Shown here in pieces: positions 26,250 to 29,129 of a stretch of 64,000 bases of DNA. The notes under the pieces are model-generated. The model saw only the letters and a list, made by a program, of their open reading frames with translations. It was not told the origin of the DNA and did no database searches. Both the position numbers and the translations under genes were made by a program. This DNA comes from Octopus vulgaris. Taxonomy: Eukaryota. Position 1 is the first letter of the stretch. Every line of letters begins with the position of its first letter. The stretch lies in the NCBI GenBank assembly GCA_951406725.2, contig OX597824.1:16554001-16618000 (forward strand), in the 5' to 3' direction.

Positions 26250-26281
26250 AGGCGCAGGAGTGGCTGTGTGGTAAGTAGCTT
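26250..26281 (+). mobile_element. SINE A head, interrupted; right half resumes at ~28508-28588
   Basis: AGGCGCAGGAGTGGCTGTGTGGTAAGTAGCTT identical to intact copies. Confidence 0.85.
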
Positions 26282-27023
26282 AATCAACCTGTTCCAGAGA
26301 ATGTTCGGGCAGGGGTACCTGGATAATTACCAGAAATCCCTGGCCTGGCAGTGATTCCGTCCGGCGTTACCTGTTCACGACAAGCTGTCAAGGCACGGAA
26401 GTGCCGTCTCGCCGATATGTCCGCGATGTGAGCGGGATAGGGAAACCGTCTTGCACGCATTCGTGGAGTGCTCGGAGTTATCGGGACTGATTGCTTTTGC
26501 CGAACAACTGTTGTCAGTGAATGGAAGAGTACAGCTATCAACGGAGTCAATCATTGAGCCACCTCCCTTCCTCAGCAGGGAAAGGAAGGCTTGTTTTTCC
26601 TGCGTAGTAGCCAAACTGAAAGAAACAGTATGGAAGACGCGTACGAAAGGTATAGTGACAGGTACCTTTGTATCCGGCCAGGGGTTGGTTAACTTTTTTA
26701 TTTACCACCTCGGTAGTAAGATCAGGCTGGAGAAGAGGTGTCTGTCACGAGATATGTTTGTGAAAAGATGGAAGTCTGTAGCTTGCAAGCTGGGTATATT
26801 TGGCACCAGGTAAGTGTGGCCGGATCAAGAAGTAAAGGTTCTACCCAGATGGCTGGGTTCCTTGCCCTACTGTGTAATATTAAAATTGTAAACTCTATAT
26901 TGTAAATATTGTACACATTATATTGTAAATACTAAAACGTTTTAAGCTACTACACCCTATATGTTTGTCTGTATTTGTATGTCCCCTCTATGTAACGCCT
27001 TAATGGCAAATTTTCATGAAATA
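26282..27023 (+). mobile_element. 5'-truncated Tx1/L1-clade retrotransposon (ORF2 C-terminal zinc finger and 3' UTR)
   Basis: LPVHDKLSRHGSAVSPICPRCERDRETVLHAFVEC (zf-RVT-like); stop at 26813; AATAAA at end; TSD AAGTAGCTT at 26273 and 27024. Confidence 0.85.
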
Positions 27024-27035
27024 AAGTAGCTTGCT

Positions 27036-28507
27036 GACCCACGCATGCGTGTTGGTGCTTTGCTTCAACACTTGAACAAGGAGGACATGAGCTAGTGCGC
27101 TTCGTCCTAAAATTGAAAATTAAGAAGTCCGTCGAGGTGGGTGATTTTGTTTGTTTTGAGCTGGGCGTGATTTATTGTTTTGGAATTTTTTTTCAGCAAA
27201 TTTCGCCCAGCTCTGGGACAATTTCGCCTGCTCTCGGCGGGTATTGTGATTTTTGCTTGTTGACATAATGTTGGGGGCGTATCCCCGCTCCAAAAGTTTG
27301 TTCCAGTCATTGAATATTTTTATGGCCTATTGTGGCGAAGATTCGTCTTCTGTGGATTTAAGATTCCAACTCGGAGTACCAGCCAAAGAAGAGGGCCATG
27401 AGTACCTGTGGCTGGAATTGTGTAGTTGCCATTTGGAACCATATTTTTATTTCTTTCGTGGTTTTCCTTCTGTTTTATGAACTGTTCTTTTTGTTTTCTT
27501 TGTCTTATTTTTTACTGTCTATTTTTTCGTTCGGATTTTTCTATTTTCTAGTGTATTTCAATTTTTGTGGACATTTGAACTTTCTTCCTCATGGCGATAA
27601 AGAATGGTGCCACTGCTTTGGAGTGGGAGATTGTCCCACCCAAGCAGTGTTTAATAGATATAGATGAGAGGGCAGTGGTGGTTAGAAGTTATTCTAAAGT
27701 TCTTGATACCATCACCGTCTTCCCAAAGCCAGTTATAGAAAATGAACTGAAAAACTATTTGTCCTCTGTGAAATACATATCCGGCGGTGTCAAGCATGCA
27801 ACCGTACGGTTGCTGTTTGACACCCTGGAGACGGCTCGCAATTTCGCGAGTCAGCCCTTGGAGGGAAACGAAATTCTGTTCCCCCCCCCCGTCGTACTGC
27901 GGGGGGAAATTAATAAGAGCCTGGGTATGTGGGTTACTCCCGGGCACCGAGGTGGTTGGATTGAAGATGCCATCCGACGGTAACTGAGAGATAGTGGGCC
28001 CAGGCTTTTAAATGTAAGGTTATTGCCGGCAGTCGATTGAAAGGGGTCAAAATCGCTTTTGACCATGTGGACCCCATCGGCTGCAACAGATATGGTTTTT
28101 CCAGATTTTTTCTAAATGGCTGGCTGCAGGTATCAGGTGATACTTGAGGGACGTACCCCAAATATCACTCGTGCCTGCAGCCAAGCCACATTAAAAAGAA
28201 CTGCCCCCAGGACCATGGTAAGGTCCAAAAAGGATTAAAAAGGAAGAAGGTGGGCAACAATGGTTGTCCGCCGAAGGACCCTAAGGCCTCAGGTGGTGGG
28301 GGAGAGACTCCGGACTAGCGGAAGAGCTCCACTCTCCCGGAGTCAGGAAGAAAAGAATGAAAAGAAGAAGAACGGGTCATTGCAGGTGGGAGATGATGTA
28401 CCGTCTGCATGTCCCGAAGTTGTGCCACCCACGGTGGAAGAAACGACCCCACCTTTAAAGATGATGAATTAATTATCTTTTTCTACAAGGGCGGGAAGGT
28501 AGAAAAA
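27036..28507 (+). mobile_element. 5' UTR and disrupted gag-like ORF1 of a probable Tx1-type retrotransposon
   Basis: ORF from 27591 with frameshifts; zinc knuckle (Y)HSCLQPSHIKKNC at ~28165-28204, then a basic, low-complexity tail. Confidence 0.6.
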
Positions 28508-29129
28508 ATGTGTGTGTTTGTGTGTCTGTGTTTGTCCCCCCAACATCACTTGACAACCGATGCTGGTGTGTTTACGTCCCCGTAACTTTTTGTATTGATA
28601 ATATTTGAGTTAGGCGGAAAGATTACGTGTCCATGAGCAGACATAAACACTCTGAAGGTCTTGGGAAAGAAAGAGGAATTTTCTAAACGAGAAACATGTC
28701 TCAAATGCTTGCCACGTTGGAGATATCAGGCAGTGATTTTAAATGGGGGCGATTTTCTTTTACATAGTTTTTTTTCCACTGAAGAAATTTCCAAACACTA
28801 AGACATGCTAACTATTAATTGATTAATTAATTAATTAATTAATTAATCAATTAATTGATTAATGAATTAATTTATTTATGATCGGCCATAATTTGTATTA
28901 CACATAATTTGCATTACACATAATTTGCATTACACTGCAAACGCAAACTTATTCTCAAGGATTAAATACGCTCTGCAGCTTCGAGTTGTTTCCCTTGAAT
29001 AGTTAAATAAGGAGTAGTCTCCCTTGAATTACAATCTTTAAAATTCAAGTTTTTACTTTGTATTCACAAAATTTTTAAAGCATTGACGGTGAAAATTTTT
29101 TTATTCGTCGCGTTATATATATATATATA

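Follow-up and report, generated by a model that had tools for sequence, protein, structure and literature searches.

A LINE lineage and ORF1-only families at a single bond in the head of an abundant octopus SINE

Sequence-specific LINEs are known to target rDNA, small-RNA genes, microsatellites, telomeres and DNA or LTR transposons, and a CCHC zinc knuckle in ORF1 is a feature of the Tx1 clade. Transposon-targeting LINEs of this clade include Xenopus Tx1, which inserts into Tx1D, as well as crocodilian Tx1-Mar, which targets Mariner-N4_AMi, Tx1-9_AMi, which targets Harbinger, and Tx1-8_Crp and Tx1-4_AMi, which target LTR elements; the sections of the source that treat them describe SINEU passengers in the crocodilian systems and call a LINE target-specific when one sequence type makes up more than 20% of its flanks (PMC4494074). 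For Drosophila R1, the relevant sections of PMC2718515 describe arrays that grow as elements insert into the 5′ duplication, as well as target sequence at the element's 5′ end that aids second-strand priming, and DNA transposons that target tRNA A boxes appear in passages of two further reports (PMC3706591, PMC8869645). In octopus, a SINE named OR1 is mentioned in part of PMC4824008, and a repeat annotation includes L1-Tx1 families, the words 'target', 'nested' and 'site-specific' being absent from its main text (PMC13282606). We found no description of a SINE-head-targeting LINE with protein-coding passengers in the literature searched.

Here we analyse a 64,000-nt stretch of Octopus vulgaris DNA (the window, to which plain coordinates refer) together with the genome around it (2.8 Gb in 227 contigs). 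We propose, with a probability of roughly 0.86, that a LINE lineage with an APE endonuclease (family A) and several ORF1-only families of ~2 kb (the B families) insert at one bond, GGT/AAGTAG, of an abundant SINE head, and that in the window a truncated LINE lies upstream of an ORF1-only copy older than itself; the ORF1-only copy likely went in first and the LINE second, both by target-primed reverse transcription with the LINE's ORF2 protein. That such an A/B system exists at the SINE head is well supported. The site in the window (26250-28590) comprises the following features:

26250-26272, + strand: SINE head up to the insertion bond; its sequence matches intact SINE copies of the window
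26273-26281, + strand: left target copy AAGTAGCTT, the 9-nt duplication from the family A insertion
26283-27023, + strand: 5′-truncated family A LINE (subfamily A1)
26355-26813, + strand: ORF2 C-terminus with zf-RVT (E 8e-7) in the A1 piece
26944-26951, + strand: AAGCTACT, reverse complement of the target's first 8 nt (reached in 1 of 200 shuffles)
27024-27038, + strand: regenerated target AAGTAGCTTGCTGAC between both elements
27039-28509, + strand: ORF1-only non-autonomous element of family B1 (~2.1 kb when whole)
27591-28480 (end approximate), + strand: decayed ORF1 of the B1 piece with stops and frameshifts, starting at ATG 27591
28508-28588, + strand: remnant of the host SINE's 3′ part (~80 nt), joined after a deletion

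The SINE head, the duplication of AAGTAGCTT (26273-26281 and 27024-27032) and the LINE 3′ end between its two copies are all found in the sequence as the first-pass annotation had described them. Within the head, TGGCTGTGTGG at 26261-26271 is what we take to be an A-box-like motif, and the A at 26282, just past the left target copy, is likely untemplated. After ORF2, the A1 piece continues into a 3′ UTR that ends in GAAATA, without poly(A), and AAGCTACT is located 80 nt ahead of this end. SINE sequence had been thought to stop at 27035, but the target-like run after the first element extends to 27038; the first ~8 nt of this run are likely target-derived, and the remainder is likely a target-like 5′ end that the second element itself carries. 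The ORF1 nature of 27039-28509 is confirmed by the homologue that begins at ATG 27591, with 40% identity to the intact 414-aa ORF1 of the young family B5 (E 2e-64) and a zinc knuckle (28163-28204) in which a Tyr codon stands in place of the first Cys. The B1 piece is missing ~80 nt internally as well as its last ~545-580 nt, the latter having been taken by a later deletion together with its 3′ junction, the SINE B box and the SINE middle; AT microhomology is present at the join near 28508. The sequence beyond this join is SINE-derived, as had been suggested, but instead of the right half of the SINE it is merely an 80-nt piece of its post-microsatellite part.

Whole copies of family A are ~5.45-5.6 kb long, many of them intact, and encode an ORF1 with a zinc knuckle (zf-CCHC, 23.9 bits against a cut-off of 20.8) and a 1133-aa ORF2, in an intact example of which (L178) Exo_endo_phos, RVT_1 and zf-RVT all score above cut-off. 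Domain layout and behaviour together make it likely that family A belongs to the Tx1 clade. Its closest named ORF2 relatives are Argonauta proteins (53-64% identity), and a quick RT tree (43 of 44 rows, with no verified Tx1 or L1 reference among them) groups the younger subfamily A0 with families of its own genome and an Argonauta protein (SH-aLRT 99). Match scores are 317 bits for Takifugu BAD04856.1, presumably a Keno-type element, versus 228 bits for human L1 ORF2, and no named Tx1 relatives emerged from protein searches and cluster look-ups. Contigs of four runs cover the element, although such contigs cannot indicate transcription.

The flanks of family A copies reveal a single target. 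A search with the A1 3′ UTR yielded 247 candidates, of which 40 were scored and 30 fetched; an AAGTAG-like run follows the 3′ end in all 30 and is itself followed by SINE body in 23, another element in 3 and other DNA in 4. We also took pattern censuses of 3′ ends that are blind to the flank, the patterns containing no target sequence. For A1, 26 of 30 exact 3′ ends are on target at GGT/AAGTAG (22 running into SINE body, 3 into another element and 1 into the duplication and then a different SINE), and the remaining 4 lie off the SINE, yet begin AAGTAG or AAGTGG. For A0, with 109 exact 3′ ends, each of the first 30 is on target and 29 run into SINE. Matches to the terminus shared by the families are followed by exact AAGWAG in 63 of 83 cases. 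The chance expectation for the target bond is ~2e-4 per insertion even given a million SINE copies, and with 26/30 and 30/30 flanks on one target family A is target-specific in the sense of PMC4494074. In 15 of the first 30 A loci the SINE head adjoins differing 5′ truncation points, often with the loss of a few target bases, and these A insertions are therefore independent; the others are 3 off-target, 3 interrupted and 9 that run on. Site-specific insertion into the SINE head is thus strongly supported genome-wide, and the proposal of an element that aims at this head stands, the flanks of other copies being anything but random.

Two sister LINEs in the same genome, families C and D, have 75-76% RT identity to A and other insertion sites. 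Family D (76%) is found directly before (CT)n in all four copies examined (L182, L184, L185, L187), and the four family C copies examined form self-tandems or end before TC. Head-to-tail arrays of family C with a ~5.28-kb period, many intact ORF2 frames and no SINE target were also observed (L181, L188 and contig C9 of genome G000 at 59.21-59.25 Mb).

Since all on-target 3′ ends join at GGT/AAGTAG, and since B1-type copies begin with the same target-like run as AAGTAGCTTGCTGAC, both window insertions use one bond, rather than two sites ~3 nt apart as initially supposed. Their ages differ: the A1 piece departs from the column majority at 16 of 735 positions (2.2%; nearest copy 1.2%) and the B1 piece at 71 of 1437 (4.9%; nearest copy 7.1%), a gap in divergence with p=0.0016. 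The two insertions are hence separate in time and independent, as had been claimed, and because the B1 piece is the older one, A would have re-entered the regenerated site upstream of it. The main alternative is template jumping, by which a stack would arise all at once as the reverse transcriptase finishes one RNA and, from a target-like cDNA end, continues on a second. Elements here do carry target-like 5′ ends, and in one ORF1-only group (B4-type) 14 of 29 copies, in 13 independent stacks, have another element downstream of them, versus 1 of 30 for A0; the B4-type figure is far above an occupancy of 5%, an assumed and generous value, and plain sequential re-insertion does not explain it. 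Several young stacks also have members of similar age, with similar rates of private changes, and stack L313 has a reverse trend (6/1961 private changes upstream vs 2/2222 downstream, p=0.16), with L264 leaning the same way. Against a single event, the window members differ twofold in age, and the upstream member is the younger in L273 (4/5399 vs 15/1948) and in L180. We therefore consider that template jumping may hold for some young stacks, but that it is not likely for the stack in the window and improbable as the general explanation.

In the mechanism that we favor, successive target-primed insertion, ORF2 would nick the bottom strand at the bond, with the top-strand nick falling up to ~15 nt farther downstream. 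The site would be rebuilt at the 5′ junction by the duplication, such that later elements enter upstream and stacks grow 5′-ward, by analogy with R1 tandem arrays. ORF1-only RNAs could borrow ORF2 via the common last ~45 nt, and the target-like 5′ end might allow the completed cDNA to pair with the cut top strand and prime the second strand, in a manner comparable to melanogaster-type R1.

A search with the 5′ end of the B1 piece gave 287 candidates (40 scored, 30 fetched), and among the fetched 5′ ends 26 lie directly after the SINE head, 3 after the 3′ end of another element and 1 is truncated. Eleven B1 relatives were fetched whole; 8 are complete units of 2.0-2.2 kb flanked by two target copies, and no ORF2 sequence was found in any of the eleven. 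An ORF1 protein search returned 150 scored matches, of which we examined the best 30 and 18 further loci from a second group: the 3′ junction lies at the target in 29/30 and 18/18, respectively, and no ORF2 was found inside these units of 1.95-2.35 kb. Intact ORFs of 414-427 aa are present in the best ORF1-only copies, and a distinct ORF1-only lineage, E (1.5 kb, 408 aa), is likewise found at this bond. Family A and the B families are thus two element types at a common bond, and the right-hand piece, initially read as a second autonomous Tx1 element, belongs to the second type. The corresponding alternative, that two autonomous Tx1 copies, possibly of one family, lie ~3 nt apart with the second cut off after ORF1, would suit a B1 piece that lacks its 3′ end in the window and whose ORF1 is homologous to that of family A; it is very improbable given the complete ORF2-less units among its close relatives, the one bond in all on-target copies, and a DNA similarity between B and A confined to the last ~45-50 nt (~82% identical).

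Nor is it supported that the two pieces belong to one family, as had been considered, with an ORF1 identity between B and A of 24-30%, compared with 32-40% between A and its sisters C and D (22-34% for B against A, C and D). Because B ORF1 is farther from that of A than the latter is from C and D, the B families represent an old lineage rather than a recent deletion of A, and on these sequence comparisons their origin predates A. ORF1 of the young B relatives is intact and under purifying selection, with dN/dS of ~0.12-0.19 up to the knuckle; over 203 codons (Nei-Gojobori), B4 vs B5 gives dN 0.21 and dS 1.6, the latter near saturation, and B5 vs B6 gives dN 0.036 and dS 0.19. Judging by the common bond and common 3′ end, the B families would be mobilized in trans by the ORF2 of A. 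As a separate observation, the ORF1-only families are mosaic, with one ORF1 type joined to differing 5′ UTRs and 3′ ends (L275, L293-L310) and one mosaic bearing the 5′ end of autonomous A1, which suggests exchange between stacked elements. At two loci (L329, L330), four to six or more ORF1-only elements from two lineages are stacked at one SINE site, and 3′ end variants alternate along them.

As for how the site is chosen, changes at positions +1 to +6 are found in 6 of 41 empty SINEs but in none of the 88 young insertions (p=8e-4), and +7 to +12 tolerate change (16 of 32 differ in the older SINE variant). The invariance of +1 to +6 would fit recognition by the endonuclease, and RNA pairing may contribute. 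Full-length A0 copies have TAAC at the 5′ junction in all 16 cases with a local target that lacks it (11 of the loci fetched were chosen for non-TAAC targets), and the last ~7 letters of the apparent duplication therefore belong to the element, its target-like 5′ letters being TTGCTAAC. The duplication at a truncated copy (L226) is a genuine one of 15 nt, another family has a fixed 5′ variant, one base shorter, on either SINE type, and the 5′ end of one B4 copy (L303) is of the local type. A0 sits in the TAAC SINE variant in 19 of 30 cases, not a significant preference at ~1:1 availability, and the lack of TAAC among A1 copies (0/21 scorable; one case, L006, in the other set), considered as specificity, fits age instead. 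Amplification of SINE head, LINE and SINE body whole as a composite unit, with no targeting, might be read from the SINE sequence on both flanks of most copies and from the target-like letters that travel with the element, but is hardly credible at all with heads adjoining many different truncation points, flanking SINE bodies from different subfamilies with their own linked diagnostic bases, and local +7 or +8 variants in both target copies (L258, L315).

Many element tails carry an antisense copy of the site, AAGCTACTT, which spans 8-9 nt in A1 and A0 and 7-9 nt in B1-B4; B5 and E either lack it or have an imperfect version. In two older copies located in the AAGAAG SINE variant the tail motif is changed correspondingly, which amounts to one evolutionary change; among the five AAGAAG-flanked copies, the motif is changed in these 2, its region is disrupted in 2 and it is unchanged in 1. 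Pairing between the tail motif and read-through target RNA is predicted in 3 of 4 folds. We also considered whether read-through RNA overwrites the 3′ flank to +13, and reject this, as +13 stays linked to downstream SINE diagnostics. We tentatively suggest that the SINE head may be a dispersed, self-renewing landing pad for a guild of one LINE lineage and at least two long-lived ORF1-only lineages, whose aiming might be partly RNA-guided. The RNA-guided part is similarly conjectural: each RNA would carry target-like 5′ letters and an antisense tail copy, both of which would have changed as SINE subfamilies turned over. If this were true, the site could be re-aimed by changing the RNA rather than the protein.

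The host SINE is ~415 nt long and likely tRNA-derived. Its head occurs in at least three variants genome-wide, with 5,252, 33,327 and 32,784 exact 27-mer copies (window examples at 16667, 31806 and 29240), and element subfamilies of different age occupy different head variants, which offers a relative clock. Splitting of the SINE's Pol III promoter had also been proposed; the insertion does lie immediately downstream of the A-box-like TGGCTGTGTGG, but at least 71,363 exact heads read straight through the bond, so that nothing here indicates an effect on the SINE family. The head may, as had been suggested, act as a safe harbour for the elements. Elsewhere in the window, a second abundant short repeat forms tandem copies at 15899-16327 and 55102-55588 (periods 217 and 184), and a 15-nt unit is repeated 48 times at 4882-5605 (92% identity).

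ARAGORN calls no tRNA gene in the window and the SINE head has no Rfam tRNA match; compared with three genomic tRNAs it scores z 2.2-3.0, and it has GTGGTAAGTA, 10 nt around the bond, in common with tRNA-Asp. We found no real tRNA gene hit by A or B elements among 330 loci, on which ARAGORN made 4 calls (3 genes), all intact, and in one locus (L101) the insertion lies in a SINE ~45 nt behind an intact tRNA-Asp. With a pattern that would match tRNA-Asp sites whether empty or filled, those among the matches listed (100 of 125) are all empty, a comparison of low power at an occupancy of a few percent. A tandem tRNA-Asp array with a 158-nt period and 32 ARAGORN calls in 9.8 kb (L341; contig C5 of G000, ~51.23 Mb) is broken by ~2.1-kb inserts, two of which have their last ~110 nt in common, and one insert contains an internal fragment of a related LINE ORF2 (56% identity) without ends. 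The gaps of ~2.1 and 5.3 kb in the tRNA-Asp array, considered as A/B insertions on account of their element-like sizes, are neither A nor B.

Intact ORF1 and ORF2 copies exist, and the system can therefore be assayed. With over 70,000 perfect sites and three variants of the SINE head, the genome offers a natural experiment on the shares of protein and RNA pairing in LINE targeting, which is of current interest for site-specific gene insertion. The benefit that a parasite draws from maintaining an ORF1 of its own by selection can be seen in the ORF1-only families, and the stacks record the order of element activity.

The A/B system can be set beside several described ones, in the parts of the cited accounts that deal with them. 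Like HeT-A/TART/TAHRE, it combines an ORF1-only element with complete helpers in mixed head-to-tail arrays; the Drosophila elements are telomeric, end-targeted and host-beneficial, and nothing comparable is shown for A and B (PMC5537684). Sister family D, with (CT)n after 4/4 copies, can be likened by description to the microsatellite-targeting Tx1 elements Kibi and Koshi, unlike which family A has moved to a SINE site (PMC4494074). The B families would work like HAL1 (half-L1), being non-autonomous and encoding ORF1 alone, although we do not claim membership in HAL1 proper (L1 clade), and they differ from it in strict site specificity, a zinc-knuckle ORF1 related to LINE lineage A, young intact copies and mixed stacks (PMC5753468). 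Drosophila R1 shares a duplication of ~14-15 nt, arrays formed through the 5′ duplication, target-bearing 5′ ends and target deletions at some junctions; whereas R1, of another clade, occupies one locus, 28S rDNA, the target here exists as over 70,000 scattered copies, and autonomous and ORF1-only families occur together in the arrays (PMC2718515). Finally, as among the transposon-targeting Tx1 LINEs, an APE-type LINE prefers another mobile element, non-autonomous passengers use the same site and insertion is in tandem, but where the crocodilian Tx1 elements have two target regions and snRNA-headed SINE passengers, the host here is the head of a SINE, the target a single bond and the passengers code for ORF1 (PMC4494074).
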